The notes below the pieces were generated by a model. The model was not told where the DNA came from and did not search any database. It saw only the letters and a program-made list of their open reading frames with translations. A stretch of DNA of 64,000 bases from Escherichia coli (GTDB taxonomy: Bacteria; Pseudomonadota; Gammaproteobacteria; Enterobacterales; Enterobacteriaceae): NCBI RefSeq assembly GCF_030013205.1, contig NZ_CP122648.1; one strand, given 5' to 3'. The translations under genes and the position numbers were made by a program. This document shows, in pieces, positions 6,324 to 44,485 of this stretch. Positions within the stretch are counted from its first letter, which is position 1. The number at the start of each line of letters is the position of its first letter.

Positions 6324-6875
6324 ATGACCGCGTATTGGCTGGCCCAGGGCGTGGGTGTCATCGCCTTTCTGATTGGTATCACAACATTTTTCAATCGTGA
6401 CGAACGTCGCTTCAAAAAGCAGCTTTCGGTCTATAGCGCCGTTATTGGCGTACATTTTTTTCTTCTGGGCACCTATCCCGCGGGGGCCAGCGCCATCCTT
6501 AATGCCATTCGTACACTCATTACCTTACGCACGCGTAGCTTATGGGTAATGGCGATTTTTATTGTGCTGACTGGCGGAATTGGCCTCGCGAAGTTCCATC
6601 ATCCTGTCGAACTATTGCCGGTAATCGGCACGATTGTCAGTACCTGGGCGCTGTTCCGCTGTAAAGGGCTGACCATGCGCTGCGTAATGTGGTTTTCAAC
6701 GTGTTGCTGGGTGATTCACAACTTCTGGGCGGGGTCGATAGGCGGCACGATGATTGAGGGGAGTTTTCTGCTGATGAATGGTCTGAATATCATTCGTTTC
6801 TGGCGGATGCAGAAAAGGGGAATTGATCCGTTTAAAGTAGAGAAAACCCCTTCCGCCGTAGACGAAAGGGGTTAA
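6324..6875 (+). CDS. ygjV: Inner membrane protein YgjV
   Basis: 183-aa hydrophobic ORF at conserved position between uxaA and sstT. Confidence 0.8.
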   Translation: MTAYWLAQGVGVIAFLIGITTFFNRDERRFKKQLSVYSAVIGVHFFLLGTYPAGASAILNAIRTLITLRTRSLWVMAIFIVLTGGIGLAKFHHPVELLPVIGTIVSTWALFRCKGLTMRCVMWFSTCCWVIHNFWAGSIGGTMIEGSFLLMNGLNIIRFWRMQKRGIDPFKVEKTPSAVDERG

Positions 6876-6879
6876 ACAA

Positions 6880-8124
6880 TTAATTACGCAGGGCGCTATT
6901 TGCCAGACGATCGTCTTCTGCCTGGCAAGCTGCCGCAGTGAATAGCACGTCAGTTGAAGAGTTCAGCGCGGTTTCGCAAGAGTCCTGCAATACGCCGATG
7001 ATAAAGCCGACGGCAACCACCTGCATGGCGATATCGTTCGAAATACCGAACATATTACAGGCCAGTGGGATCAGCAGCAGAGACCCCCCCGCCACGCCGG
7101 ATGCGCCACAGGCACACAGAGAAGCCACTACGCTCAACAGCAGCGCTGTGGGCAGATCGACCGGAATACCCAGCGTATTAACCGCAGCCAGCGTCAACAC
7201 GGTAATGGTGATTGCTGCGCCCGCCATATTGATGGTGGCTCCCAGCGGAATAGAAACGGAATAGGTATCGCGATCCAGATTCAGCTTTTCACACAGCGCC
7301 ATATTCACCGGAATGTTCGCTGCAGAGCTGCGGGTGAAGAAGGCATACACACCGCTTTCACGCAGGCACAGCAGCACCAGCGGGAACGGGTTACGACGAA
7401 TTTTCCACCACACCAGCAATGGGTTAACCACCAGCGCCACCAGTAACATACAGCCAACCAGCACGACCAGCAGTTGCGCGTAGCCCCACAGTGTGGAGAA
7501 ACCGGTGGTTGCCAGGGTAGAAGAAACCAGACCAAAAATACCGATCGGTGCGAAGCGAATGACCAGTTTCACCATAAAGGTGACGGCATTCGACATATCG
7601 TTGACCAGGTTTTTGGTGGTCTCGTTACCGTGACGCAGTGCGAAACCGAGGCCAATTGCCCACACCAGAATCCCGATGTAGTTACCTTTCAGCAGCGCGT
7701 CGATGGGGTTGGAAACCATGCTCATTACCAGCCCGCGCATCACTTCGACAATGCCTGACGGCGGCGAAATATCACCCGCGCTACTGGACAAGTGCAGGGT
7801 AGAAGGGAAGGCAAAACTGAAGACTACTGCGGCCAGAGCAGCAGAGAAGGTGCCCAGCAGATAGAGGAACAAAATAGGGCGGATATTGGTTTTCTGCCCG
7901 TGCTGGTGGTTAGCAATAGATGCCATCACCAGCATCAACACCAGGATGGGGGCAACGGCTTTCAGTGCGCCGACGAACAAAGTACCTAACAGACCAACAG
8001 CTTCCGCCGCGGGTTTTGAGATCCATGCCAGAAGAATCCCCAGAACAAGGCCGACCAGGATTTGTTTTACCAGGCTGCCATGAGCCAGACGCCGGAATAG
8101 CCCCGGTGAACGTTGCGTAGTCAT
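6880..8124 (-). CDS. sstT: Serine/threonine:Na+ symporter SstT
   Basis: 414-aa [37 protein letters not shown]..., DAACS-family transporter composition. Confidence 0.9.
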
Positions 8125-8739: not shown

Positions 8740-9705
8740 TCATTCTCCCCGCTGCTTATCATGCTGATAATTCACCCAGGCGTTGATAATAAACGTCATC
8801 ACCAGAATGCCAAACACCACGCCCAGCGAGACGGCGATTGGAATATGGTAGAAGTCGACAATCAGCATCTTGATACCGATAAACACCAGAATTACCGCCA
8901 GGCCATATTTGAGCATCGAGAAACGTTCTGCTACGCCCGCCAGCAGGAAATACATCGCACGCAGGCCGAGGATTGCAAACAGGTTTGAGGTCAGCACAAT
9001 AAACGGGTCAGTGGTCACGGCGAAGATAGCCGGAATGCTATCCACGGCGAAAATCACGTCGCTCAATTCCACCAGAATCAGCACCAGCATCAGCGGCGTG
9101 GCATACAGCAAGCCATTCTTACGCACAAAGAAATGCTCGTTGTCGATGGTGTCGGTCATGCGCAAATGACCGCGCAGCCAGCGCATCAGCGGCTTGTCGC
9201 CAATGCCTGATTCATCTTCATGGGCCAGCGCCATCTTCACGCCGGTAAACAGCAGGAAGGCACCGAAGATATACAGGATCCAGTCGAACTGCGAAATCAG
9301 CCAACTGCCAGTGAAGATCATGATGGTACGCAGAACAATCGCTCCGAGTACGCCATACACCAGCACGCGCCGTTGTAACGCCGCCGGAACAGAGAAATAG
9401 CTGAACAACATCAGCCAGACAAAGACGTTATCGACCGCCAGCGATTTCTCAATCAGATAACCCGTGAGAAAGGCCAGTGCCTGTGGATCGGCAACGGCGC
9501 GACCTTCGGTTTGCACCAGATACCACCAGAAAGCGGCGTTAAACAGTAACGACAGCGTCACCCAGACCAGCGACCAGGCCGCAGCCTGTTTCATGGTCAT
9601 GGCATGTGCCCCACGACGCCCCTGCAACAACAGGTCGATAGCCAGCATAATGGCGACAACAACAGCGAATCCGCCCCATAGCAACGGCGTGCCGACAGTA
9701 TTCAT
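8740..9705 (-). CDS. alx: TerC-family inner membrane protein Alx
   Basis: 321-aa multi-[34 protein letters not shown]... Confidence 0.9.
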
Positions 9706-9900
9706 AGAAGTTCCTTACACATAAAAAAACGGCCAACGTCGGAAGACGTCAGCCGCTGCTTTTTATGCATAGACCTCGCCTTCCGGCAAGGTCTCACTTA
9801 CAACAAAAAAGGAATACGTCTGCGTATTCCTTTCGGGTTGCCCGGTGACCGGATGTGGTTTTTCACACATCGTAATGACGATCGACCGGCAATGAAGTTA
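9706..9900 (-). promoter_or_regulatory. alx 5' leader (pH-responsive RNA element / yybP-ykoY-type riboregulatory leader; sRNA SraF locus in E. coli)
   Basis: Long untranslated leader upstream of alx with several hairpins (e.g. GGAATACGCAGACGTATTCC, and GGCCAACGTCGGAAGACGTCAGCCGCTGCTTTTT); assignment from known biology of alx, motif not formally scored. Confidence 0.45.
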
Positions 9901-15977: not shown

Positions 15978-17547
<1,570 letters not shown>

Positions 17548-33264: not shown

Positions 33265-33317
33265 CTGATATATAAAAAGAAAAAGGCTGACGATTTCTCG
33301 TCAGCCTTTGCTATGTC

Positions 33318-33362
33318 TGGTGGCCCCTGCTGGACTTGAACCAGCGACCAAGCGATTATGAG
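33318..33362 (-). repeat. 45-bp direct repeat of the tRNA ileX 3' end (island att core, yqjH-proximal side)
   Basis: TGGTGGCCCCTGCTGGACTTGAACCAGCGACCAAGCGATTATGAG is identical to 44410..44454 (3' part of ileX); diverges from the tRNA thereafter. Confidence 0.85.
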
Positions 33363-33471
33363 TTGGTTGATAACCCTTTACTTACAGATAATTAGCGATA
33401 CTTTTCAATACCTTAGTATTTTTTAAAACTACTGTATAAATACCTGTATATACCCCAAAATACTTCTTTAC

Positions 33472-33520
33472 GGTATCCTATAGGTATCCTGGAGCAGAAC
33501 AAGCGATTTTCCAGGATACC
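33472..33520. promoter_or_regulatory. Putative integrase arm-type binding sites (GGTATCC repeats)
   Basis: GGTATCCTATAGGTATCCTGG plus inverted CCAGGATACC just upstream of int; near-identical GGTATCCTATAAGTATCCTGG recurs at 44347..44367 at the other island end. Confidence 0.5.
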
Positions 33521-33543
33521 AGATCGCTTGGTGGGGTGTATGA

Positions 33544-34971
33544 GTGAAATTATTCAGATTCTCTAAAGTAAAAATTGCAGAACTGCCAACGCCGGAACAT
33601 GGACAGGTCGAATATGGTGATACGGAGGTTAACGGGCTGCGTGTCCGTGTAGGTTCGTCTGGTGTGAAAAGTTTCTGCATTTCCCGTAAGCGTAACGGAA
33701 AATTTATTCGTGCAACGCTGGGGCGTTTTCCTGATCTGAGCGTGGATAATGCCAGGGCTAAAGCTATGGAACTCCTTGGCGAAGTCGCCACAACGGGGAT
33801 AAATCCGAACATAGCAAAGCGCACTAACAACAAGGCCATGATAACGCTGAGTAAGGCGATTGACGCCTACGTAAAAAATCGTGGCCACCGCCTGAAACCC
33901 GCCACAGAAAAACAGTACCGCAGCATATTACAGAATTATTCCGGTGACTGGATGGCCCATACCCTCGCCAGTATTTCCCGCGAACGGGTGGAACAACGGC
34001 ATAAGGCCATCACTGATGGGGCTGTATGGTTCGGTGCTGATAAAACCACGTTACGGGCTGGGGTTGGTACAGGAAGCAAGGCACAGGCCGATTTATGGGC
34101 GCGTGCGCTACGTGCTGTGTGTCGGTTTGCGCATGATCATTACCGTGATGATGCGGGTAATACTCTTTTACCGGATCCGCCGACTCTGGTACTGAGCACC
34201 AAGCGCCAGTGGCACGGAACGGTAAGAAAAACGGAACGTATCCGCCTGCATGATTTTCCCCGCTGGTTTGCTGCTGTAGCTGCTGTGCGCGACCAGGGCG
34301 AACAGGAAAGGGATGATATAGCGGTGACGGTATGCGATGCCGTGGAAATGGCGCTTTTTACCGGACTGAGGAAATCAGAAATTTTTGGCCTTACGTGGGA
34401 TCGCGTGAATATGGGCGGTCGTTTTTTCTGGATAGACACCACGAAAAACGGGGATCCGCTCGAATTACCGATTACTGATACGTTGCGGGAAATGTTCCAC
34501 CGCCGACTGAAAATAAAAAACGCTGATGATGTTCTGGTGTTTCCTGGTGTGAAGGGAGTGATTCAGGAAACACGGCACATCATAGACCGGATAAGCGCGG
34601 CTACTGTTCCAGAGTCGAACGATGAAATGCTCTCCCCTGTACCATTCAAATGGCACGATGCACGCCGGACGTTCGGAACGGTTGCCGAACTGGTGGGCGT
34701 GGGCAATTACATCCTCAAGCGCCTGATGAATCACCGTACTATGCGAAGTGCTGACGTAACGCAGGGGTATTTACATTTTGGTGCTGATGAACTGCTGGAG
34801 CCAGCGTCACGGATAGAACGGGCAATTCTGGAACATGCCGGGCTGGTGGAGAGTAAAAAATCTATCGATGCGCAATTGCTTTCCGCACTGGAGAGTATGA
34901 GTGACAGTGAGAAACGCGCATTACTATTTAGTATCGTTAATTCAAATGGTGGTTTGAATGTCAGAAAATAA
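33544..34971 (+). CDS. Tyrosine recombinase / P4-type integrase
   Basis: 475-aa ORF (GTG start at 33544); N-terminal arm-binding-like segment (GLRVRVGSSGVKSFCISRKRNGKFIRATLGRFPDLSVDNARAKAMELL) and C-terminal catalytic region with H-x-x-R and Tyr (WHDARRTFGT...TQGYLHF). Confidence 0.85.
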   Translation: MKLFRFSKVKIAELPTPEHGQVEYGDTEVNGLRVRVGSSGVKSFCISRKRNGKFIRATLGRFPDLSVDNARAKAMELLGEVATTGINPNIAKRTNNKAMITLSKAIDAYVKNRGHRLKPATEKQYRSILQNYSGDWMAHTLASISRERVEQRHKAITDGAVWFGADKTTLRAGVGTGSKAQADLWARALRAVCRFAHDHYRDDAGNTLLPDPPTLVLSTKRQWHGTVRKTERIRLHDFPRWFAAVAAVRDQGEQERDDIAVTVCDAVEMALFTGLRKSEIFGLTWDRVNMGGRFFWIDTTKNGDPLELPITDTLREMFHRRLKIKNADDVLVFPGVKGVIQETRHIIDRISAATVPESNDEMLSPVPFKWHDARRTFGTVAELVGVGNYILKRLMNHRTMRSADVTQGYLHFGADELLEPASRIERAILEHAGLVESKKSIDAQLLSALESMSDSEKRALLFSIVNSNGGLNVRK

Positions 34972-35644
34972 AATCATTGCTGCAATAGAATTTGACCATA
35001 ATGATGCGAAGGATATGAATACTATTGCAGATTATATTAGAGATGAACTGGCGTCTTCTTTTGTAAAAAAAACGATATGCGATATGGCAAATATCACACC
35101 ATCTAAAATGTCTCTGGAGGAGAGATTATCATTATCGTCAGAGATAGAAAATAAGGATTTAAAGGTTAATATTTCTGTATGTGCCGGATATGGAGATGAT
35201 TTTGATAAAAAATTTAATAGTGCATATTCAGAATTCAATGATATTTTGAAAGCTGCCATTATATTTGAAGTTCTTGGTTTCAACAGACTTGCAGATCAGT
35301 TACGTGAAAGATATGCGATTTTAGTGTCGGAGAATTTATTAAAATCAGTACGTGATATAGCTAATGTAAAGAAAATTATCAGTAAAGACCGTAGTAAAGC
35401 AAAGAAAGGAAAAACAAACAGGCATAAATCAACAGCGTTATCTATAGCTTGTAACACTTGGAAAAAATACCCTAATGCCAGTTTACCCGGGCTATCCGCA
35501 GAGATATACGCGCACTTACGCAATAAATGGAATGATGTCCCTGTAGTTGGGACTATAGAGAGATGGCTTAAGGAGTCGGGGATGAATCCAAAATCCCCGC
35601 AAAAAAACAGGGATTTTAAGTTAGTTATTGGAGACAAAGAATAA
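34958..35644 (+). CDS. Hypothetical protein, AT-rich cargo gene (no family recognised)
   Basis: 228-aa ORF MSENKIIAAIEFDHNDAKDMNTIADYIRDE...; start overlaps int stop; markedly AT-rich by eye compared with the rest of the island; Lys-rich central segment. Confidence 0.55.
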   Translation: MSENKIIAAIEFDHNDAKDMNTIADYIRDELASSFVKKTICDMANITPSKMSLEERLSLSSEIENKDLKVNISVCAGYGDDFDKKFNSAYSEFNDILKAAIIFEVLGFNRLADQLRERYAILVSENLLKSVRDIANVKKIISKDRSKAKKGKTNRHKSTALSIACNTWKKYPNASLPGLSAEIYAHLRNKWNDVPVVGTIERWLKESGMNPKSPQKNRDFKLVIGDKE

Positions 35645-35776
35645 ATCCAGTTTTATCCTCTGTAATCCAGATTTCAGCCATGTAAACCAGATATGCGATT
35701 TTGTATCTGGTTTTCCTGTCTTCAAGACTTCCCCATCGCTAAATAACGTATACCTGTTCTTAATCAGAAGTATACG

Positions 35777-35974
35777 GTGATACTCATGCATTTAGAAAAG
35801 ATGACCCGCAAAGAAGCTGCCGAGCATTTGGGGGTAAGTGTCCAGACTCTTGCTAACTGGGCGTGTACTGGCAAGGTAAAAATCCCTTTTCATAAGCTGG
35901 GGCGCAAAGTGCTGTATATGCGCACTGATCTCGATGCTTATCTTGCATCCACTCGCAGAACGCAGACGGTGTAA
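35777..35974 (+). CDS. Excisionase/AlpA-type helix-turn-helix DNA-binding protein
   Basis: MTRKEAAEHLGVSVQTLANWACTGKVKIPFHKLGRKVLYMRTDLDAYLAS fits the excisionase-family HTH pattern; three candidate starts (GTG 35777, ATG 35786, ATG 35801). Confidence 0.7.
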   Translation: MILMHLEKMTRKEAAEHLGVSVQTLANWACTGKVKIPFHKLGRKVLYMRTDLDAYLASTRRTQTV

Positions 35975-36115
35975 GGGGGGAGTGATGGCACATAAAACAA
36001 AGGCGACCGCAAAAGGGTCGCCAGTGGGAACAAGGGAAAACAAAAGCATCACCAACAATGCCACATTTGCGGCTGGTGGGCAATGTGATCAGTGTGCTGG
36101 CTTGCTGGTTAGCTG

Positions 36116-36298
36116 TCAGCCTTTGGGTTCTATGCCTTCTTTGCGTAGCTTATCACGACAAGCATTTTTTACCCATGAGCTGAAATTACCAGGCCCTGCA
36201 ACTTCGTTAATTTGTTGCAACAATGTGTCTTCGAAGCGGATGTTTTTCTTTGTGCTGCCGGAGCGATCAAATTTTGGTTTCACATTTTCTTCTTGCAT
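36116..36298 (-). CDS. Putative ribbon-helix-helix (Arc/CopG-like) small regulator
   Basis: 60-aa ORF; segment KKNIRFEDTLLQQINEVAGPGNFSSWVKNACRDKLRKE fits a beta-strand/helix/Gly-turn/helix RHH pattern; start abuts palindrome TGGTACGTACCA; weak RBS. Confidence 0.4.
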   Translation of the reverse strand: MQEENVKPKFDRSGSTKKNIRFEDTLLQQINEVAGPGNFSSWVKNACRDKLRKEGIEPKG

Positions 36299-36343
36299 TG
36301 GTACGTACCATCGTTATAAACTGAAATCAAATGGTACGTACCA
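36299..36343. promoter_or_regulatory. Pair of identical 12-bp perfect palindromes TGGTACGTACCA (candidate operators)
   Basis: Copies at 36299..36310 and 36332..36343, 33 bp centre-to-centre, in the spacer between divergent small genes. Confidence 0.5.
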
Positions 36344-36443
36344 CATTAAAAATACGCAACCATTAAATACAGCGAAGCCCGGCAGTGCGGGAACACTAAC
36401 CGGGCTTCTAACCACCAACGATAGAAAGCGTATCGAGGTAGCT

Positions 36444-36647
36444 ATGAGAAATCATACCACACACCCGCAAGGGCGGGACTCGCACGACCTGAATAAATAC
36501 ATCTGGCGTTTTATCGCCCTGAGCACCGCACAACCGCGCGTGATTCACATCGTGGCCACCAGCGAACAGGAAGCACGCCAGCAATCCCCGGCTGGCTGCG
36601 TGATGGTATTCGCCGCCCGTATTCGTCAGGGGGTGTGCCATGCCTGA
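36444..36647 (+). CDS. Hypothetical small protein (68 aa)
   Basis: ATG at 36444 preceded by GAGGT RBS; MRNHTTHPQGRDSHDLNKYIWRFIALSTAQPRVIHIVATSEQEARQQSPAGCVMVFAARIRQGVCHA; stop overlaps next start. Confidence 0.5.
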   Translation: MRNHTTHPQGRDSHDLNKYIWRFIALSTAQPRVIHIVATSEQEARQQSPAGCVMVFAARIRQGVCHA

Positions 36648-36960
36648 TATGTCAAATTACCAGTACCTGATTAATCCGCATTTTAACTGTGAGCATGATA
36701 TTGCTAAAAAGGTTTATTCCGCTGCGGATGGGGCTACTGACAATATATCAATGGGTATTGCGTCAATTGGTAGCCTGATGTGGCATGCGTCAGAAAATGA
36801 GGACTATGACGAAAAGGCTATGCGCATTGATATGGGTAATATCGGTTTGTTACTGGCAATGCTTGGGCAGTTTGATATTTCGTTACGGTGCACCATTGAA
36901 AATGCCACAGATGCATTAAATGCCATAAAGAAAGCGAATACTGATTCAAATCGGGGATAA
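36640..36960 (+). CDS. Hypothetical protein (106 aa)
   Basis: ORF with start overlapping upstream stop (translational coupling), part of a same-strand chain leading to the primase gene. Confidence 0.5.
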   Translation: MPDMSNYQYLINPHFNCEHDIAKKVYSAADGATDNISMGIASIGSLMWHASENEDYDEKAMRIDMGNIGLLLAMLGQFDISLRCTIENATDALNAIKKANTDSNRG

Positions 36961-36966
36961 ATAATC

Positions 36967-37266
36967 ATGAGAACATATTTATCTGGCTTGACTGCCAGCG
37001 GTTATGCACACCCCAAAATTATCCCCGGCGCTATTTATCTGGATAAGAACGGTAACAGAGTAACGGTAAAAGAACTGATGTTTGACCGTGTGTATTTTAT
37101 TCGTGATGGCTATTCATTTCATAGTTCGCTGAACGTGGAGATCTTTATTAGCAGATTCAGGCGGGAAATCCCGCTTTCCAGAAATAACCATGTGTCATGT
37201 ATGGATGTTGATAAAAAACTACAGGAACTGAAAAACATGATTGCCGCGTGGAGAGAGCAGAAATGA
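36967..37266 (+). CDS. Hypothetical protein (99 aa)
   Basis: ORF immediately after previous gene; stop overlaps primase start. Confidence 0.5.
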   Translation: MRTYLSGLTASGYAHPKIIPGAIYLDKNGNRVTVKELMFDRVYFIRDGYSFHSSLNVEIFISRFRREIPLSRNNHVSCMDVDKKLQELKNMIAAWREQK

Positions 37267-39080
37267 AAAAAGCGCCAAATTTAAAACACCAGCCGCGTGA
37301 CAAAATGACGGAAGTCATCATTTTTGCGGGTAGTGATGCGTGGGCACATGCGAAACAGTGGCAGGAACAGGACGGGCGACTGGCTGGCGATAACGTGCCA
37401 CCTGTCTGGCTTGGAGAGCAACAACTTGCCGAACTGGACAACCTGCAAATCGTACCGGACGGACGCTATCGCGTGCGTCTCTATCAGGCGGGGTTATTGC
37501 GTCCGGGGCTTGTTAATACCATCGGGCAGAAACTGGCAGTGGCAGGTGTCAGGGATGCTGATTATTACCCTGAAGGAATGCACAGCCAGAAACGGGAGAA
37601 CTGGCGCGAATATCTGGAACGTGAACGGGCAGAGCAGGCGGAAAAGAAAAAGGTAGTTGAACTGCCTGTAAAGAAAAAAGAGCGGGTAAAAGACGATAAC
37701 GCTTCATCACTGGCGCTTAACCAGATGGGAGCAAGTCAACGCGGCGAAGTTCTCCTGGCACATTATGGCGGTGAACTGGCGATTCATGCTGACTCTGACA
37801 CTGTTCACCATTACAACGGCGTTGTATGGGAGCCAGTACAGGATAAAGAATTACAGCGAGCTATGGCACAGATTTTCATTGATGCGGAGATCAGCTATTC
37901 GCAGAACGCCATTAAATCGGCGGTCGATACCATGAAGTTAAGTTTGCCTGTAATGGGGAATACAGCCCGTAACCTGATTGGATTCAGTAACGGGGTATTT
38001 GATACCAGAACAGGTAATTTTCGGGAGCATAACAAAAACGACTGGTTGTTAATTGCCAGTGAATTACCTTTCAGCCCACCAGCAGAGGGGGAAACGCTGG
38101 CAACACATGCGCCGAATTTCTGGAAGTGGTTACGCCGTTCGGTGGCTGAGAATGACCGCAAGGCGGATCGCGTACTGGCTGCATTATTCATGGTGCTGGC
38201 GAACCGGTACGACTGGCAGTTATTCATTGAGGTAACAGGTCCAGGGGGAAGTGGTAAAAGCGTGATGGCGGAGATTTGCACCATGCTGGCGGGTAAGGCC
38301 AACACAGTATCGGCAAGCATGAAGGCGCTGGAAGATGCAAGGGAACGCGCGTTAGTGGTTGGCTTTTCGCTGATTATCATGCCGGATATGACCCGCTACG
38401 CTGGTGATGGGGCAGGAATTAAGGCCATTACAGGCGGTGACAAGGTGGCAATTGACCCGAAACACAAAGCCCCCTACTCAACGCGTATTCCGGCAGTAGT
38501 GCTGGCGGTTAACAATAACGCCATGTCATTCAGTGACCGCAGCGGGGGGATCTCACGTCGTCGGGTGATATTCAATTTTTCGGAAGTTGTACCGGAGAAC
38601 GAACGCGATCCAATGCTGGCGGAAAAAATAGAAGGTGAGCTGGCGGTAGTGATTCGCCATCTGCTTACACGGTTTGCTGACCAGGACGAAGCCAGACGCC
38701 TGTTATATGAGCAGCAGAAATCTGAAGAAGCACTGGCGATAAAGCGAGAGGGGGATTCGCTGGTGGACTTCTGCGGCTATCTCATGGCGTCGGTAATGTG
38801 TGATGGCCTGTTAGTGGGTAATGCTGAAATTGTGCCATTCAGCCCACGCAGGTATCTCTATCATGCCTATCTGGCTTATATGAGGGCACATGGGTTTGGT
38901 AAACCTGTAACACTGACGCGCTTCGGTAAAGATATGCCGGGGGCAATGGCGGAATATGGCAGGGAGTATATGAAACGGAAAACGAAGCACGGTTTGCGTT
39001 CAAACGTGACACTGACGGAGGAATCAGAAGACTGGATGCCATCATGTGTATCGGTCACTAATGACGATAGCAAAAATTAA
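37263..39080 (+). CDS. Primase/helicase-type replication protein (P4 alpha-like; D5-type NTPase)
   Basis: ORF 37248..39080; likely ATG at 37263 (MKKAPNLKHQ...); Walker A GPGGSGKS with downstream hydrophobic-D Walker B-like LIIMPD; immediately followed by TGTTCACC iteron array. Confidence 0.8.
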   Translation: MKKAPNLKHQPRDKMTEVIIFAGSDAWAHAKQWQEQDGRLAGDNVPPVWLGEQQLAELDNLQIVPDGRYRVRLYQAGLLRPGLVNTIGQKLAVAGVRDADYYPEGMHSQKRENWREYLERERAEQAEKKKVVELPVKKKERVKDDNASSLALNQMGASQRGEVLLAHYGGELAIHADSDTVHHYNGVVWEPVQDKELQRAMAQIFIDAEISYSQNAIKSAVDTMKLSLPVMGNTARNLIGFSNGVFDTRTGNFREHNKNDWLLIASELPFSPPAEGETLATHAPNFWKWLRRSVAENDRKADRVLAALFMVLANRYDWQLFIEVTGPGGSGKSVMAEICTMLAGKANTVSASMKALEDARERALVVGFSLIIMPDMTRYAGDGAGIKAITGGDKVAIDPKHKAPYSTRIPAVVLAVNNNAMSFSDRSGGISRRRVIFNFSEVVPENERDPMLAEKIEGELAVVIRHLLTRFADQDEARRLLYEQQKSEEALAIKREGDSLVDFCGYLMASVMCDGLLVGNAEIVPFSPRRYLYHAYLAYMRAHGFGKPVTLTRFGKDMPGAMAEYGREYMKRKTKHGLRSNVTLTEESEDWMPSCVSVTNDDSKN

Positions 39081-39093
39081 ACTTATGGAATAA

Positions 39094-39316
39094 CTGTTCA
39101 CCACTGTTCACCCTGTCATAAATATCTTTTGTATCAGTATGTTATAGGGTGAGCAGTTATTTATGAACTGTTCACCAAACTATTCACTGTTCACCTTTTT
39201 GATTGTTTATTGAGCTTCAAGGGTGAACAGTGGTGAACAGTTGGTGAATAGTTTTTGTGAAACTGTTCACCCCTTAACATTATGAATTAAAAGATAAAAT
39301 ATCAAAAGGTGAACAG
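39094..39316. repeat. Iteron array, 9-mer CTGTTCACC in both orientations (candidate satellite replication origin)
   Basis: Forward CTGTTCACC at 39094, 39104, 39168, 39187, 39263; reverse GGTGAACAG at 39222, 39232, 39308; one-mismatch variants at 39148 and 39243; TGTTCACC is the iteron bound by P4 alpha protein at ori/crr. Confidence 0.7.
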
Positions 39317-39367
39317 GTGAAGGGTTAAAACGCAAAAATTTTAATTTACTGCTGTGAGATAAAGCCT

Positions 39368-39613
39368 ATGACAGCGAAGCACACAAAAAAATCACAATCG
39401 CACGCCCTTGATTTGACGGAACACTGGTTAAGGGTGTCGATAAAAATCATCGACCGCAACGCCGGGGAAGGATATGCGAAAGCACATCCCGAACTGATTA
39501 GCTCATTCATGACAACGGCAGCTGCAAACTTTGCCACGCTGACAGAACGGGAGATTGCCGAAGCGGAACAGGTGACAACCATCAACGTTAAAACCGGAGA
39601 GCAGACAGCATGA
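39368..39613 (+). CDS. Hypothetical protein (81 aa)
   Basis: ORF downstream of iterons, stop overlaps next gene start. Confidence 0.45.
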   Translation: MTAKHTKKSQSHALDLTEHWLRVSIKIIDRNAGEGYAKAHPELISSFMTTAAANFATLTEREIAEAEQVTTINVKTGEQTA

Positions 39614-40032
39614 CAGCACAGATAGCGGCTTACGGGCGGCTGGTGGCTGACCCGCAGTTAAAGACCACCAGCAAGGGTACACAAATGACGATGGCGAGTA
39701 TGGCGGTCCCACTTCCGTGCAGCCAGGCAGATGACGGAACGGCGACGATGTGGTTATCCGTCCTGGCGTTTGGCAGACAGGCCGAAGCACTGGCAAAGCA
39801 CCGCAAGGGTGAACTCCTGAGCGTGGCGGGTAACATGCAGGTGAGCCAGTGGACCGGACAGAACGGGGAGACGCGGCAGGGCTGGCAGGTTATCGCAGAC
39901 AGCGTAATCAGTGCGAGAACGGCGCGACCGGGCGGCAAAAAAGGCCAACAGGGGCAGGCTACTGATGCACTGAGCAGAGCAAAACAACAGGCGGGAAATG
40001 ATGATCCGTACGGGGATAACATACCGTTTTAA
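39610..40032 (+). CDS. Single-stranded DNA-binding protein-like (OB fold) with Gly/Gln-rich tail
   Basis: 140-aa ORF; layout (N-terminal OB-fold-like segment, then GGKKGQQGQ..., acidic DDPYGDNIPF C-terminus) resembles SSB; similarity judged by eye. Confidence 0.55.
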   Translation: MTAQIAAYGRLVADPQLKTTSKGTQMTMASMAVPLPCSQADDGTATMWLSVLAFGRQAEALAKHRKGELLSVAGNMQVSQWTGQNGETRQGWQVIADSVISARTARPGGKKGQQGQATDALSRAKQQAGNDDPYGDNIPF

Positions 40033-40046
40033 GCAACGAGTAACAG

Positions 40047-40072
40047 AAGCCGGAGCAATCCGGCTTTTTTCT
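40047..40072 (+). terminator. Rho-independent terminator after SSB-like gene
   Basis: GCCGGAGCAATCCGGC hairpin followed by TTTTTT. Confidence 0.6.
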
Positions 40073-40144
40073 GGGTCCTCCCGGTGTAGTGACCTGCCAC
40101 GGGGCGGGAGCGTCGCGGAAAAAGGCTGGTTTTTGCATTTTCAT
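40073..40144. repeat. 72-bp conserved element, copy A (paired with 42607..42678)
   Basis: GGGTCCTCCCGGTGTAGTGACCTGCCACGGGGCGGGAGCGTCGCGGAAAAAGGCTGGTTTTTGCATTTTCAT; about 67/72 identical to copy B by manual alignment; contains dyad CTCCCGGTG...CCACGGGGCGGGAG. Confidence 0.7.
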
Positions 40145-40330
40145 GGCGGCGGCAGCATGTGTAGTAATTTATTGATAATTAAAAGTTATTTCTGTTTTCA
40201 CCTGTACAATATTTTTTTCTCCCTGTCATTAGACCAGTTTGCAATTAATTGAAATATATAAATAAATTTGTTTTTCACCTGCCAGATGGAGTTGCCTGTG
40301 CAAAACGTGTTCAGATGGCGGGATATTTAT

Positions 40331-40355
40331 GCCGGATTCTCTCCGGCTTTTTTGT
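40331..40355 (+). terminator. Rho-independent terminator between repeat copy A and the capsid operon
   Basis: GCCGGATTCTCTCCGGC hairpin followed by TTTTTT. Confidence 0.55.
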
Positions 40356-40455
40356 GTCTGAATCTGATTAATCTATTTTTATGATAGAAATATGTTTATC
40401 TACCACTTTTATCGATCAATAATGCGCGCAGTTTAGTCAGTAAGAGGAAGTTACT

Positions 40456-40665
40456 GTGAATTGTATTAACGACCTGAACACAGGCGAGGTAAAAGGTGGT
40501 TCCGTTCATCTGGATGCGCAGACCGTTATGCGCCTTAAGCAGTACAGGATCGACCACATAAATCATCATCCTGACCAACCATTACCAGGTGCGGCGCAGA
40601 TTGTCAGACACGCGGTTAACGCGTGGCTTGATAAGAATGGTTTTGCATCTGGGGGGGAGCAATGA
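40456..40665 (+). CDS. Hypothetical small protein (69 aa), translationally coupled to protease-capsid gene
   Basis: GTG start preceded by AAGAGGAAG RBS; stop overlaps start of the 637-aa ORF. Confidence 0.45.
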   Translation: MNCINDLNTGEVKGGSVHLDAQTVMRLKQYRIDHINHHPDQPLPGAAQIVRHAVNAWLDKNGFASGGEQ

Positions 40666-42575
40666 ATCACTGGTACACCATTAAGGCGCTGGGTGTTCGC
40701 GGAGCGGCAGAAATATCCATCTATGAAGAAATTGGCGGCTTCGGTATTACCGCGAAGCAGTTTGCGGAAGACCTGAAAGCCCTGGGCGATGTCTCACATA
40801 TCGACCTGCGGATCCATTCGCCAGGTGGTGACGTGTTTGAAGGCATCGCCATCTATAACCTGTTACGGAATCATCCGGCAGAAATTACGGTTTATATCGA
40901 TGGTGTTGCGGCTTCAATGGCTTCGGTTGTCGCAATGGCTGGCGATCGTGTTGTGATGCCGGAAAACGCCATGATGATGATACATAAGCCGTGGGGTATC
41001 TCTGGCGGAAATGCTGGTGATATGCGTGATTATGCTGATTTGCTGGATAAGGTGGAAACCGTGTTAGTCCCTGCTTATGCCAGAAAAACGGGCAAATCAG
41101 CACAGGAAATTACCGCCATGCTGGAAGATGAAACCTGGATGGACGGGAAAGAATGCCTTAAGCACGGTTTTGCTGATGAATTGTTGCCATCTGTCACAGC
41201 AATGGCGCGAATTGAATCGAAACGCACAGGAGATTTTTCACACATGCCTGAAACCATTAAAGGAATGATTACCCCGCCACAGGGAGCAGCCAATATTGCT
41301 GGTAATGAACAGAAGCGCATCAACGGAATAAGTGAAGTGTTTAGCCTGTTCGGCAGTCGTTACGACGGGATCAAAATGGCGTGCCTGGAGGATGCATCAT
41401 GTACACCGGAGATGGCCCGTGAAAAGTTGTTGAACGAGCTGGGGCGCGAGTCCACGCCATCCAATAAAAATATCCCGACTCATATTTATGCCGGTAACGG
41501 GAACATAACAGGCGATGCAATTCGTCAGGGGCTTTATTCTCGTCTTGGGTATGAACGCCCAGAGCGGGGAAATCCTTACGCGATGATGAGCCTTTTTGAA
41601 ATGGCCCAGGCATCACTAACTGATCGTGGTATCAGTGTTGGCAGTTTTTTAAATCGCTCGCAGGTCGTTAATGCAGCTTTCACACACAGCAGCAGCGATT
41701 TTTCTCATATTCTGGCTGGTGGTGCTGAAAAATCAGTGCTGAAAGGCTGGCAGGACAGCGGCGAAACGTTCCAGAAATGGACGCGTACCGGATCGCTTTC
41801 AAACTTTCATGAAGCAAAGCGCGTTGGTCTGAATGGTTTTTCAAAGCTGGATAAAGTACCGGAAGGTGCGGAATATAAATACATCACCACCAGCGATAAA
41901 GGTGTACCTATTGCGCTGGCCACATACGGTAATATTTTTTCTGTTACCCGTCAGGCCATTATCAACGATGACCTGACCCAGTTAACTACAATCCCCATGG
42001 CGATGGGGCGTGCGGCCGCCAGAACAGTAGGTAATCTGGTTTATCTTCTGTTAACCAGCAACGGCAAATTTACGGATGGTAAAGCGTTATTCCATGCCGA
42101 TCATAAAAATCTTATTGCGAAGGATATGGACATGGTGGGGCTTGATGAAGCCCGTAAGCTGATGCGCCTCCAGGAGGATGCTAACGGCGACTCACTGAAT
42201 ATTACCCCTGCTTTTGTTCTGGTCCCTGCCGCGCTGGAATCTGCCGCGCGTCGCGCCATTCTGTCATCGTCATCAGTCTTTCCGGTTGGTGATGAGAGCA
42301 CTATCAATCAGAACCCCGGCATCATTAACGTGGTGAAAGATATGGCAGAAGTAATTGTTGAGCCACGTCTTGATAAGGCCAATAGCAAGGAATGGTATGT
42401 AGCCGCAGCTAAGGGGATGGACACAATAGAAGTCGCTTATCTTGATGGTATGGATACGCCATATCTTGAGGAGCAGGTGGGCTTTACTGTTGATGGTGTC
42501 GCCTGGAAAGTGCGCATAGATGCAGGTGTCGCGGCCCTCGATTATCGCGGATTACTGAAATCGAGTGGAGCATGA
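40662..42575 (+). CDS. Prohead protease (ClpP/S49-like) fused to a capsid-like C-terminal domain
   Basis: 637-aa ORF; N-terminal IHSPGGDVFEGIAIYN and GVAASMASVVAMAGD resemble the ClpP/S49 serine-protease motifs (cf. lambda gpC DTPGG); C-terminal ~350 aa has no recognised enzyme motif and is interpreted as major capsid by context and composition. Confidence 0.7.
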   Translation: MNHWYTIKALGVRGAAEISIYEEIGGFGITAKQFAEDLKALGDVSHIDLRIHSPGGDVFEGIAIYNLLRNHPAEITVYIDGVAASMASVVAMAGDRVVMPENAMMMIHKPWGISGGNAGDMRDYADLLDKVETVLVPAYARKTGKSAQEITAMLEDETWMDGKECLKHGFADELLPSVTAMARIESKRTGDFSHMPETIKGMITPPQGAANIAGNEQKRINGISEVFSLFGSRYDGIKMACLEDASCTPEMAREKLLNELGRESTPSNKNIPTHIYAGNGNITGDAIRQGLYSRLGYERPERGNPYAMMSLFEMAQASLTDRGISVGSFLNRSQVVNAAFTHSSSDFSHILAGGAEKSVLKGWQDSGETFQKWTRTGSLSNFHEAKRVGLNGFSKLDKVPEGAEYKYITTSDKGVPIALATYGNIFSVTRQAIINDDLTQLTTIPMAMGRAAARTVGNLVYLLLTSNGKFTDGKALFHADHKNLIAKDMDMVGLDEARKLMRLQEDANGDSLNITPAFVLVPAALESAARRAILSSSSVFPVGDESTINQNPGIINVVKDMAEVIVEPRLDKANSKEWYVAAAKGMDTIEVAYLDGMDTPYLEEQVGFTVDGVAWKVRIDAGVAALDYRGLLKSSGA

Positions 42576-42581
42576 CAACAA

Positions 42582-42605
42582 GGGCGGCGACAGCCGCCTT
42601 TTTTA
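42582..42605 (+). terminator. Rho-independent terminator after protease-capsid gene
   Basis: GGCGGCGACAGCCGCC hairpin followed by TTTTTT. Confidence 0.6.
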
Positions 42606-42606
42606 C

Positions 42607-42678
42607 GGGTCCTCCCGGTGGAGTGGTCTGCCACGGGGCGGGAGCGGCGCGGAAAAAGGCTAGTTTTTGCATTTTCAT
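42607..42678. repeat. 72-bp conserved element, copy B
   Basis: GGGTCCTCCCGGTGGAGTGGTCTGCCACGGGGCGGGAGCGGCGCGGAAAAAGGCTAGTTTTTGCATTTTCAT; same terminator-then-element arrangement as copy A. Confidence 0.7.
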
Positions 42679-42831
42679 TCGTCGTCATCATCTTTATATG
42701 ATATTGAATTTTAAGTATTTTTATTTTTGGTATGTTAATTTTGCTTGTTTTATGCTCAACATATAGCGCATTTTTTGACCTCTTCTGAAAGTTGTTCGCA
42801 GGATGCATGTTTAAAACATTCTGGAGCGGGT

Positions 42832-43317
42832 ATGGATCGAGAACTGAAAAATCTGATGCTGAACATTAATCAACTGGCGGCGATAGCGGGAATATGTCGT
42901 CAGACTGCGGCGGCAAGGCTGAAAAACATCCAGCCAGCCGGAGGGCATGACAAGCTGAAACTCTATCGGGTGACTGACATTCTGACCTGTTTTCTTGATC
43001 TTCCCGTTCCGGCATCACTGGAAGAAATGGAGCCACATGACCGTAAGGCCTGGTATCAGTCCGAACGTGAACGCCTCAAGTTCGAACAGGAAACGGCGCA
43101 ACTCATACCCGCCGATGATGTGCGAAAAGAGATGGCTATATGGGGGGAAATCGTAAGCGAGGAACTGGCAAAACTCCCCAATATTCTGGCACGTGATGCC
43201 GGGCTTAAACCGATGGCAGTAAACAGAGTGCAGTCAATTATTGACGATTTGTGTAATCAGATTATCAGCCGGATGGTAAAAAATGACGTAGTGAATGAGG
43301 TCGCAAAACAGGCATGA
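42832..43317 (+). CDS. Terminase small subunit, lambda Nu1-like
   Basis: ORF 42745..43317; likely ATG at 42832 with GGAG RBS; MDRELKNLMLNINQLAAIAGICRQTAAARLKNIQPAGGHDKLKLYRVTDILTCF parallels the Nu1 N-terminal wHTH region (KKQLADIFGASIRTIQNWQEQGMPV...EVLYDSAAVIKWY); comparison from memory. Confidence 0.65.
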   Translation: MDRELKNLMLNINQLAAIAGICRQTAAARLKNIQPAGGHDKLKLYRVTDILTCFLDLPVPASLEEMEPHDRKAWYQSERERLKFEQETAQLIPADDVRKEMAIWGEIVSEELAKLPNILARDAGLKPMAVNRVQSIIDDLCNQIISRMVKNDVVNEVAKQA

Positions 43318-43601
43318 TAATGACCGAATCTGAAATACTGCGATTAATCCGCTGTGCTGGTGGAATCAGCCAGTTGGCTGACGAACAGGCCGCGCAGCCG
43401 GATACAGTCACCGCTGAAAATTACGCGCGTGTGGTGGCTGAGGTGATGCGCCGTGACGGTATTGAGCTTAACGGCGTGGATATGCGCAACATACGAACCA
43501 GAGTTCTTGAGTTGCTGGCATACCGTCGCCGTTCTCAACAACGGAGGGAGAGCGCGAAAAATACTTACCAGTGGAGGAAGCCGGAGCACTTACGGCGGTA
43601 A
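43314..43601 (+). CDS. Hypothetical protein (95 aa)
   Basis: ORF overlapping terS stop by 4 nt; basic C-terminus. Confidence 0.45.
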   Translation: MIMTESEILRLIRCAGGISQLADEQAAQPDTVTAENYARVVAEVMRRDGIELNGVDMRNIRTRVLELLAYRRRSQQRRESAKNTYQWRKPEHLRR

Positions 43602-43618
43602 CTGGTTGATATTATCGA

Positions 43619-43870
43619 AAGTGCAAAAATGCACTTAGCAACTGGTGGCGAGTTGCAGATCTGCAACTCGACTATGAAACTACGGAAACTACCCGTAGTT
43701 TGGGTAGTAAGAGTAACACCCAGATTTTGGGGCTTACTCGCGATACCCAAATAAATGGTATCGGTGGAAGAAATATCGTTTCTCATATGTGAGTACCGAG
43801 GGCGGAATTCCGCCTTCGGTTACTTATTGTGCTCATGCACAGGGAGAGGCGGGTACAAATCTCTGTACCC
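43619..43870. other. Hairpin/palindrome-dense non-coding region at the attR-proximal end of the island
   Basis: At least eight distinct dyads in ~250 bp: AAGTGCAAAAATGCACTT, GAGTTGCAGATCTGCAACTC, AAACTACGG-N7-CCGTAGTTT, TGGGTAGTAAGAGTAACACCCA, CGATACC-N9-GGTATCG, GGCGGAATTCCGCC, TGTGCTCATGCACA, GGGTACA-N6-TGTACCC; no convincing ORF. Confidence 0.6.
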
Positions 43871-44051
43871 TGACGTCTTCCGGACTGCCAGCCCCATCGT
43901 TTTTTTACGCCCGCGAAAAATAAAAATTGTTTGTATGTGAGTATTGTAGCCAGCAAAAGCTCTTTCTTTGGTGGCTTATTGTTTCTAATAGATTTTGGGA
44001 GGTAGAAATGGGAGGCCCAGCGAAAGCTGGGCCGAGCTTGTTACGCTGTCA

Positions 44052-44195
44052 TTACTTCAGCATGATAACTAAAGCTATACATACTAGCACTACGGCTATT
44101 GGGCATAGACCTAAATTGCCAAGTGCTGCGATTAAACCTGTAACGGCAATCACACGTGCAGACAGCAGGTCTGAGCCCTTTCTTAAAGTATCCAT
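44052..44195 (-). CDS. Small hydrophobic peptide (47 aa), candidate membrane peptide of type-I-toxin-like size
   Basis: ATG preceded by GGAGG RBS (ACGGAGGTATCA-ATG); translation MDTLRKGSDLLSARVIAVTGLIAALGNLGLCPIAVVLVCIALVIMLK has polar N-terminus and one predicted TM helix; below the 60-aa track cutoff. Confidence 0.3.
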   Translation of the reverse strand: MDTLRKGSDLLSARVIAVTGLIAALGNLGLCPIAVVLVCIALVIMLK

Positions 44196-44346
44196 TGATA
44201 CCTCCGTCAGGGTTTTTGCCGGTCTCTTGGAGAGTTGGGGGCAAAAGTTCAGACCCGTAGCACTTTCTTGTTCGCAGGTGAACGGCTGCTACGACCCAAC
44301 TGTTCTGTAGGCATGAGCCAATTCTTACTTGTTAATACTTCTCAGA

Positions 44347-44367
44347 GGTATCCTATAAGTATCCTGG
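44347..44367. promoter_or_regulatory. Putative integrase arm-type site, tRNA-proximal side
   Basis: GGTATCCTATAAGTATCCTGG, near-identical to 33472..33492. Confidence 0.45.
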
Positions 44368-44409
44368 TAAAGCAAGATAGTTTGGATACATCTGTAATTC
44401 ATTGAAATC

Positions 44410-44485
44410 TGGTGGCCCCTGCTGGACTTGAACCAGCGACCAAGCGATTATGAGTCGCCTGCTCTAACCACTGAGCTAAGGGGCC
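44410..44485 (-). tRNA. ileX: tRNA-Ile (anticodon CAU, lysidine-modified isoleucine tRNA)
   Basis: Reverse complement reads GGCCCCTTAGCTCAGTGGTTAGAGCAGGCGACTCATAATCGCTTGGTCGCTGGTTCAAGTCCAGCAGGGGCCACCA: 76 nt, CAT anticodon in loop, encoded CCA end; canonical position next to mug. Confidence 0.9.

Follow-up and report, generated by a model that had tools for sequence, protein, structure and literature searches.

The phage-inducible chromosomal islands, or PICIs, are known and abundant in Escherichia coli. Their core, as defined for SatelliteFinder, consists of an integrase, a regulator, a primase-replicase, a capsid-morphogenesis gene and a small terminase (TerS), and 97% of those elements that possess the full set of five came from E. 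coli (PMC10085698). The classical E. coli family is typified by EcCICFT073, for which AlpA-dependent, helper-triggered induction and pri-ori replication have been demonstrated and whose two lambda-type cos sites are both functional (PMC6092414); its RppA protein retargets the TerS of the helper to a divergent cosB (PMC6739421). Here we describe an 11.1-kb (11,092-bp) element that lies between nfeF (yqjH) and the tRNA-Ile(CAU) gene ileX in a 64-kb stretch of E. coli DNA, hereafter the window, which is 100% identical to strain ETEC4079 (NZ_CP122643.1), a Belgian pig isolate. We consider it highly likely that this element is an intact PICI of the classical family. It is ordinary as a class, and its main value lies in the presence of dual cos types and in packaging genes that are matched, module by module, to the head lineages of helper phages.

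The ileX island and its relatives

The island is delimited by an exact 48-bp direct repeat (33316-33363 and 44408-44455, with a spacing of 11,092 bp), made up of the tRNA gene's last 46 nt together with 2 nt more. In K-12, ileX lies 53 bp from nfeF/yqjH, and in a three-way alignment this empty site equals the left flank, one copy of the core and the right flank of the window. Taken together, the repeat and the alignment place an 11,092-bp element in the 3' end of ileX, into which the tyrosine integrase has inserted it, with the tRNA gene rebuilt. The same tRNA gene is the only one found in the window by ARAGORN and Rfam (44410-44485, minus strand, anticodon CAT; labelled tRNA-Ile (ileX) by RefSeq), and it was the sole match in an Rfam scan of the whole window. 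A preliminary description, made from the sequence alone, had placed an ~11 kb element between ileX and yqjH and given the two genes as adjacent in K-12, which agrees with the repeat, the empty site and the RefSeq annotation; it had also reported a direct repeat of the tRNA 3' end, which is real and exact but 48 bp long rather than 45 bp.

Both flanks are made up of core genes: aer-nfeR-nfeF borders the element at one end, ileX-mug-rpoD-dnaG at the opposite end. When all open reading frames (ORFs) of the element were profiled and the flanks were inspected, no portal, large terminase (TerL), tail or lysis genes were found inside the element or adjoining it, as the preliminary description had stated; contiguous genes of this kind, which it had named as the sign of a degraded prophage rather than a satellite, are thus missing. 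The exact att cores, the core-gene flanks and the lack of structural-gene fragments all speak for the satellite. As read from the RefSeq annotation, 13 of the 15 genes lie on the plus strand, and orientation is rightward throughout apart from ylcI and a 57-aa ORF (40396-40569), which is probably a strand mis-call; none of the genes carries a pseudogene flag.

The gene order is that of EcCICFT073: int, a gene for a helix-turn-helix (HTH) protein, ylcI in reverse orientation, the Icd-like gene, small ORFs, the DUF4222 gene, pri and the origin, continued by a small ORF, the gene for a single-stranded DNA-binding protein (SSB), another small ORF, a capsid gene, a packaging-specificity gene and a gene for a 93-aa protein. 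This order is also common to EcCIIHE3034 and EcCIATCC25922. As in PICIs, int lies at one end of an att-flanked island whose size falls within ~8-12 kb, the HTH gene lies downstream of int, pri is followed by an iteron origin, the capsid gene and terS lie at the right end, and the backbone genes have orthologues. The island holds 5 of the 5 PICI core components and 0 of the 'forbidden' ones (tail, lysis, portal, connector and TerL), and the five-component PICI model of SatelliteFinder would probably detect it. Profile searches supported the integrase, the excisionase-type HTH protein, a P4-family replicase, the SSB-like protein, the capsid fusion and the TerS of the preliminary description, but not its primase domain, and its S49 protease only marginally.

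The likeness to EcCICFT073 extends to a size of ~11 kb, two lambda-type cos sites and five backbone proteins that are 35-94% identical: the Icd-like protein (94%), the 93-aa protein (72% to c1505, for which the PMC6092414 supplement also lists 93 aa), SSB (71%), Pri (48% over its full length) and the DUF4222 protein (35%). The two islands differ in several other respects. EcCICFT073 has a 10-bp att core between ycfD and phoQ, whereas the island described here has the 48-bp ileX core and another integrase. Its regulator AlpA has no similarity in BLASTP to the HTH protein of the island, which is assigned to this slot by position and family only. It encodes a lambda-E-like capsid protein with a decoration protein in place of the ClpP-major capsid protein fusion, its packaging slot holds RppA (c1503, 144 aa) with a divergent cosB in place of a DUF1441 TerS with a phage-like cosB, and it has neither the P4-type iterons nor the SfV-type cos (cos3) described below. 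An Rpp-type cos PICI was rejected, since the protein in the slot has no similarity to RppA, profile comparison included, and since phage cos regions share 77-81% identity with the cosB-like region.

Other described islands show further combinations. EcCIIHE3034 and EcCIATCC25922 (Table S1 of PMC6092414) have the same backbone and their own terS instead of rpp, but the packaging genes they carry are those of a lambda-type head, encoding an E-like capsid protein along with a decoration protein and a TerS of 180 aa that is 38% identical to Nu1, unlike the mEp460/Gifsy-2/Stx head type found here, and both are without cos3. EcCI042 has a lambda-E-like capsid gene and a decoration gene, and EcCIRM13514 has neither. 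Capsid-forming PICIs (cf-PICIs) such as EcCIEDL933 (bioRxiv 10.1101/2022.09.08.507074) likewise join a PICI backbone to their own capsid/protease functions and a TerS; however, cf-PICIs additionally have genes for a portal, head-tail connectors, HNH and TerL, and as no portal, connector/adaptor, HNH or TerL was found among the profiled ORFs of the island, this assignment was rejected. Staphylococcus aureus pathogenicity islands (SaPIs) of the SaPIbov5 type, as summarised elsewhere (PMC5052747; cf-PICI preprint), combine a helper-type cos with Ccm, which is homologous to the helper's capsid protein, but they are Gram-positive and their proteins are unrelated, whereas the island has a protease-capsid fusion and its own TerS.

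In its replication module the island resembles the satellite P4. Pri matches the Pfam families D5_N, DUF5906 and Pox_D5, and its residues 145-595 are 51% identical to residues 320-771 of P4 alpha, which form the helicase and origin-binding part. At its C-terminus it matches the 100-residue chain of PDB entry 1KA8 ('putative P4-specific DNA primase'; E = 2e-24), which we take to be alpha's winged-helix domain for origin binding. The first ~320 residues of alpha, including the primase domain, are absent, and the N-terminal aa 1-144 of Pri, which are without a family match, form a domain that Pri of EcCICFT073 also has; against TIGR01613 Pri scores 95 bits, with a cutoff of 108.7. Hence, of the 'alpha-like primase' described before, the P4-type helicase and origin-binding part remains and the primase domain does not. 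The iteron TGTTCACC occurs 10 times in the window versus 1.8 times expected (no shuffle of the window gave 10), and eight copies lie at most 240 bp past the pri stop codon. It is identical to the annotated 'ori type 1 repeat' of P4 (ori/crr), as had been proposed, and it is absent from the origin of EcCICFT073, which has different iterons. Judged from the helicase, the origin-binding domain and the iterons, replication specificity appears to be P4-alpha-like, and the P4-like replication logic of the preliminary description holds for these three parts. The identity of the iterons and the type of the origin-binding domain suggest that the island and P4-like satellites, if co-resident, might show replication cross-talk or incompatibility.

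Integration at a tRNA gene and a genome of ~11 kb are further points of likeness to P4. Otherwise the two elements differ. No ORF of the island matches the Sid, Psu, Delta or Epsilon families (PHROGs and NCBIfam), and no match was found between the integrase, the regulator and the 106-aa protein and their P4 counterparts (Int, Vis and ORF106 compared); the match of the Icd-like ORF to the P4 cI ORF is marginal (E = 0.04). The packaging signals of P4 are of P2 type, whereas those of the island are lambdoid or SfV-type, and int of the island is far from the intact tRNA gene. The earlier view of a hybrid layout outside the classic P4 plan was thus right about the absence of sid, psu and delta, the P4-like replication and the lambdoid morphogenesis genes, but the layout is the standard PICI order and not a hybrid without a place among known elements.

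Packaging genes and three cos sites

Three cos sites, which were absent from the preliminary description, are the key to the packaging of the element. Two of them form a 94-nt direct repeat (40051-40144 and 42585-42678, 87% identical) that aligns with the cos region of lambda and near-perfectly with the cos regions of phages phi458 and 606R10, and that belongs to no Rfam family. In each copy a terminator-like hairpin is followed by GGGTCCT, presumably the cosQ heptamer of lambda, and then by CCACG running directly into GGGCGGGAGCGT, where lambda has TTACG running into GGGCGGCGACCT. The first copy, cos1, is without a phage-like cosB after cosN. In the second, cos2, the 210-230 bp that lead to terS match, at 77-81% identity, the interval between cos and terS in phi458, 569R4 and PhiR47_1, and this cosB-like region adjoins the island's own terS in the same arrangement as in phage genomes. 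The deposited genomes of phages cdtI and Tritos start exactly at the position that corresponds to 42636 of the window, which would place the cos2 nick between 42635 and 42636.

The DUF1441 protein encoded next to cos2 matches the PHROG family of small terminases and shares 62-71% identity with the TerS encoded ahead of TerL in mEp460, phi458, 606R10 (vB_EcoS-606R10) and Ayreon, where it sits between cos and a gpA-type TerL. Because of these two lines of evidence, we regard it as the small terminase of the mEp460/Gifsy-2/Stx-type lambdoid lineage, an assignment made from sequence comparison. It had been called a Nu1-like TerS; the family and the position in phage genomes bear out the TerS, but homology to Nu1 was not demonstrable, either by BLASTP with lambda Nu1 (E = 3.1) or by hhalign with Nu1 and the TerS of EcCIIHE3034 (E = 0.13 across 120 colinear columns of very shallow profiles). 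TerS matched no chain in the PDB sequence set, and an AlphaFold2 model made from a 5-sequence alignment had a predicted local distance difference test score (pLDDT) of 52, too poor for use.

Upstream of cos2 lies the capsid gene, whose product had been described as a ClpP/S49-protease-capsid fusion. The ClpP-like protease and the capsid part were recovered by NF045540 and by Pfam (CLP_protease, 1.6e-34, and Phage_capsid_4), while the match to S49/SppA is marginal. The fusion protein is 56-60% identical to those of mEp460, mEp213, phi458 and Stx phages, and when it is aligned with the phage proteins, Ser85 (GVAASMAS) and His108 (MMIHKP) of the ClpP-type motifs show no variation. Compared with these, it lacks 29 aa of Pro/Ala-rich linker behind the protease domain, begins with 7 additional residues and carries a 7-aa insertion (VFPVGDE) in the capsid domain; the linker deletion, the N-terminal extension and the VFPVGDE insertion are candidate determinants of altered assembly. 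By sequence, cos1 and cos2, TerS and the protease-capsid fusion are all homologous to their counterparts in one lambdoid head lineage, which includes mEp460, mEp213, phi458, Gifsy-2 and Stx phages.

The third site, cos3, is unrelated to both lambda-type cos sites. It occupies the end of a conserved non-coding block of 329 nt at the right end of the island and is 84-90% identical to the genome termini of phages SfII, SfV, SfI, SfIV, ST64B and related E. coli phages, in which the corresponding sequence sits between an HNH gene and terS. Its cohesive-end 10-mer is TGCCAGCCCC (43886-43895). Among 5,426 complete E. coli genomes, on which all our distribution counts are based, 348 contain the right-end block at a coverage of at least 80%, and in one genome that was inspected it comes after a PICI whose packaging module is of the lambda type; the block with cos3 is common to PICIs with different lambda-type packaging modules. 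The cos3 block is absent from EcCICFT073, IHE3034, ATCC25922, 042 and RM13514, and some O157:H7 genomes have the palindrome-rich part of the block while cos3 is absent. This palindrome-rich stretch (43640-43840) contains GAGTTGCAGATCTGCAACTC, nested AAACTAC/GTAGTTT repeats and a perfect 13-bp hairpin (43795-43820); as RNA it has a fold z-score of -8.5, and no Rfam family matches it.

The distribution of the island points to a mobile and modular element. The whole island, 97-100% conserved, is found at ileX in 32 of the 5,426 genomes, the same backbone and packaging module occur behind a different integrase at cspD-clpS, and the packaging module alone is present in 176 genomes; modules have been exchanged between islands. 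One PICI backbone can carry packaging modules from different lambdoid head lineages, either of the lambda type (E, D and Nu1) or of the mEp460 type (the ClpP-capsid fusion and the DUF1441 TerS), and the slot beside the 93-aa gene can hold either Rpp or a true TerS. In the literature searched we found no description of the ClpP-capsid/DUF1441 packaging variant or of an SfV-type cos in E. coli PICIs. Hundreds of E. coli genomes have this second, SfV/ST64B-type cos at the right end of islands of this sort; if functional, it would make two packaging machineries usable, and could in turn confer a wider helper range and a larger contribution to the transfer of genes among pathogenic E. coli and Shigella.

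Proposed mechanism and rival readings

We suggest the following course of events, in which the single steps carry less confidence than the identity of the element as a PICI. By analogy with EcCICFT073, a helper phage would switch on the HTH activator, Int would excise the island across the 48-bp core, and Pri, acting as an SF3 helicase, would bind the iterons and, together with the island SSB, replicate the circle into concatemers. The island TerS might then bind the cosB-like DNA beside cos2 and recruit a gpA-type TerL of the helper, which would nick cosN, and the DNA would be packaged into heads using the portal, completion proteins and tail of the helper; four island units amount to 44.4 kb and would fill a helper head of 42-45 kb. 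The capsid fusion could co-assemble into island-sized or mixed heads, or it could interfere with the assembly of helper heads. Finally, cos3 might permit packaging by a second type of helper, whose HNH, TerS and TerL would cut there. It is tempting to combine these points into a satellite of two kinds of helpers, in which mEp460/Gifsy-2/Stx-type terminases and the island's own TerS act at cos2/cos1 and SfV/SfII/ST64B-type, HNH-dependent terminases act at cos3, and in which the capsid fusion perhaps builds island-sized shells, so that the element would represent a subfamily between classical PICIs and cf-PICIs. This idea is speculative, and we put it forward as a possibility clearly less probable than its opposite.

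Several points weigh against an active PICI with such a course of events. Induction, excision, replication and transfer are all inferred from the sequence. The inducing signal may differ from that of EcCICFT073, because the HTH regulator does not align with AlpA. Since cos1 and cos2 are co-oriented and 2.5 kb apart, efficient cutting at both would yield sub-genomic fragments. The cosN of cos2 has a one-base change at position 12, the 10-mer of cos3 has one mismatch in the 10-nt overhang to the experimentally determined cohesive end of SfI, TGCCCGCCCC (PMC3636060), and over its final ~15 residues TerS departs from the acidic tail seen in the phage proteins, which might affect the recruitment of TerL. 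Moreover, deletion of the capsid homologue of EcCICFT073 did not relieve its interference with lambda (PMC6092414), and EcCICFT073 is packaged into phage-sized capsids (PMC6739421), so that any role of PICI capsid genes is putative.

A rival reading is that the element is an immobile, decaying remnant of a prophage or island that keeps a few phage-like genes; in its favour, no helper was identified and many such islands have been annotated as defective prophages (PMC6092414). We regard this as very improbable: both att cores are exact and have matching arm-type repeats beside them, RefSeq flags no pseudogenes, there are no structural-gene fragments between the core-gene flanks, and the same backbone is found with another integrase at another site, with modules exchanged between islands. 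Even less credible is a P4-like satellite of P2-type helpers in which sid, psu and delta have been lost. Such an origin would suit the helicase and origin-binding part of Pri and the iterons identical to P4 type-1 repeats, but there are no matches to Sid, Psu, Delta or Epsilon, the primase domain of alpha is absent, and the integrase, HTH, Icd-like and 106-aa ORFs have no clear match in P4; the cos sites, TerS and the capsid gene are lambdoid or SfV-type, and the gene order is that of EcCICFT073. The intact PICI is therefore preferred over both.

Two further alternatives concern what a PICI of this kind does with its capsid and TerS genes. The fusion alone might build island-sized shells on the portal of the helper, which would make the element a partial capsid-former, intermediate between a classical PICI and a cf-PICI. 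That the fusion joins protease, linker/scaffold and HK97-fold capsid domains with conserved Ser85/His108 motifs, that it has diverged from the phage versions to 56-60% identity with a 29-aa linker deletion and a 7-aa insertion, and that the island is ~1/4 the size of 42-45 kb candidate helpers all fit this idea; nevertheless, the island has no genes for a portal, connector or TerL, and both the deletion result and the phage-sized capsids of EcCICFT073 (PMC6092414; PMC6739421) speak against it, so that we consider it unlikely, at perhaps one chance in a handful. We hold it slightly less probable still that the capsid and TerS homologues are mainly anti-phage interference factors that guard the host by poisoning the head assembly or packaging of the helper, rather than transfer functions. 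Interference with helpers is common among PICIs, phage packaging is blocked by Rpp, which occupies the equivalent slot (PMC6739421), and neighbouring hot spots of sister islands hold HEPN-domain and tail-assembly-like genes. However, the cosB-like region beside the island's own terS, in a phage-like arrangement, argues for a TerS that packages the island's DNA. The two functions, interference and transfer, can coexist.

Other features of the island and the window

The coordinates of all features are collected in Table 1, which also gives the family matches behind the HTH, SSB and integrase assignments.

Table 1. Features of the ileX island, with positions in the window
Feature	Position	Strand	Basis or remark
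Left att core	33316..33363		duplicate of the ileX 3' 46 nt + 2 nt, adjoins nfeF; exact repeat, K-12 alignment
Putative integrase arm-type sites GGTATCCTATAGGTATCCTGG and inverted GTATCCTGG (33511-33519)	33472..33519		repeat counts; putative function
Tyrosine integrase, 475 aa, Arm-DNA-bind_3 and Phage_integrase domains	33544..34971	+	PHROG 1, E = 3e-38; Pfam
228-aa protein, candidate cargo	34958..35644	+	overlaps int end by 14 nt; stretch has 35% G+C
HTH regulator, 62 aa, excisionase/MerR/AlpA class	35786..35974	+	TIGR01764, E = 6e-10; PHROG 66; alpA slot of PICIs
YlcI/YnfO family protein	36116..36298	-	NF041551
Icd-like protein	36444..36647	+	NF033153, E = 5e-20
106-aa protein, PHROG 15327	36640..36960	+	PHROG profile
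DUF4222 protein	36967..37266	+	PHROG 285; always just upstream of pri in these PICIs
Pri/Rep	37263..39080	+	N-terminal PICI-type domain, D5_N, SF3 P-loop helicase, P4-type winged-helix origin-binding domain
Replication origin, 8 TGTTCACC iterons (5 plus, 3 minus strand), A+T-rich spacer	39095..39315		directly 3' of pri
81-aa protein, PHROG 1231, coupled to ssb	39368..39613	+	same position in EcCICFT073
SSB	39610..40032	+	TIGR00621, PHROG 44
cos1: hairpin, cosQ-like GGGTCCT, cosN GGGCGGGAGCGT	40051..40144	+	cosN 12-mer identical to phi458/606R10; pattern search
57-aa RefSeq ORF, likely spurious, antisense to 69-aa ORF	40396..40569	-	no family match
69-aa ORF, translationally coupled to capsid gene, absent from RefSeq annotation	40456..40665	+	PHROG 4934, E = 5e-30
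ClpP-like prohead protease/scaffold/major capsid fusion, 637 aa	40662..42575	+	NF045540, 904 bits (cutoff 475)
cos2: hairpin, cosQ-like GGGTCCT, cosN GGGCGGGAGCGG, cosB-like region up to terS start	42585..42831	+	phage alignment
TerS, DUF1441, 161 aa	42832..43317	+	PHROG 141 'terminase small subunit', E = 7e-57; Pfam DUF1441
Conserved 93-aa terminal PICI gene, EcCICFT073 c1505 homologue	43320..43601	+	PHROG 1561; 72% identity
Conserved non-coding right-end block, 329 nt: palindrome-rich part 43640-43840, then cos3 43842-43928	43602..43930	+	phage termini alignment
Putative integrase arm-type site GGTATCCTATAAGTATCCTGG, right end	44347..44367		21-mer repeat count
Right att core 44408-44455 inside intact tRNA-Ile(CAU) ileX 44410-44485	44408..44485	-	repeat, tRNA calls, K-12 alignment

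The integrase is 20-24% identical to those of P4, EcCICFT073 and RM13514, and neither it nor its tRNA att site is among those in the 2018 PICI list (PMC6092414). A 21-bp motif, GGTATCCTATARGTATCCTGG, has two copies in the 64 kb, one just inside each att core, with 0 expected, and a 9-mer of the left arm-type region has 3 copies versus 0.27 expected; the copies of the 21-bp motif are plausible arm sites of the integrase. The int gene adjoins the duplicated tRNA fragment, which is the end away from the intact tRNA gene (33316-34971 versus 44408-44485). In P4-type tRNA islands, such as leuX-intB and ssrA-intA of K-12, int directly follows the intact tRNA gene.

The 228-aa protein encoded after int had 0 matches in PHROG, NCBIfam, PADLOC and Pfam, the names of its clusters are all 'hypothetical', and it has no similarity to the post-int ORF of EcCIRM13514. 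It travels with the same integrase in two other ileX islands that were inspected, and it could be cargo or an accessory factor of the integrase. Among the smaller backbone genes, ylcI has the same position and orientation in EcCICFT073, IHE3034, 042 and RM13514, the 106-aa protein is unrelated to ORF106 of P4, and the 93-aa protein found nothing in a PDB sequence search.

In two sister islands at ileX, other genes occupy parts of the same layout. In one (NZ_CM192133.1) a HEPN-domain gene (6773-7486) stands where the 81-aa ORF and ssb would be, and the other (NZ_CP069438.1) has a tail-assembly-like gene (9029-9729) between the capsid gene and terS, whose product is reminiscent of the PICI-borne tail-assembly-interference (Tai) systems (PMC11364771). 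Outside the island, the window contains a gene for a 513-aa 'hypothetical protein' (15978-17519, minus strand) between fadH and ygjK.

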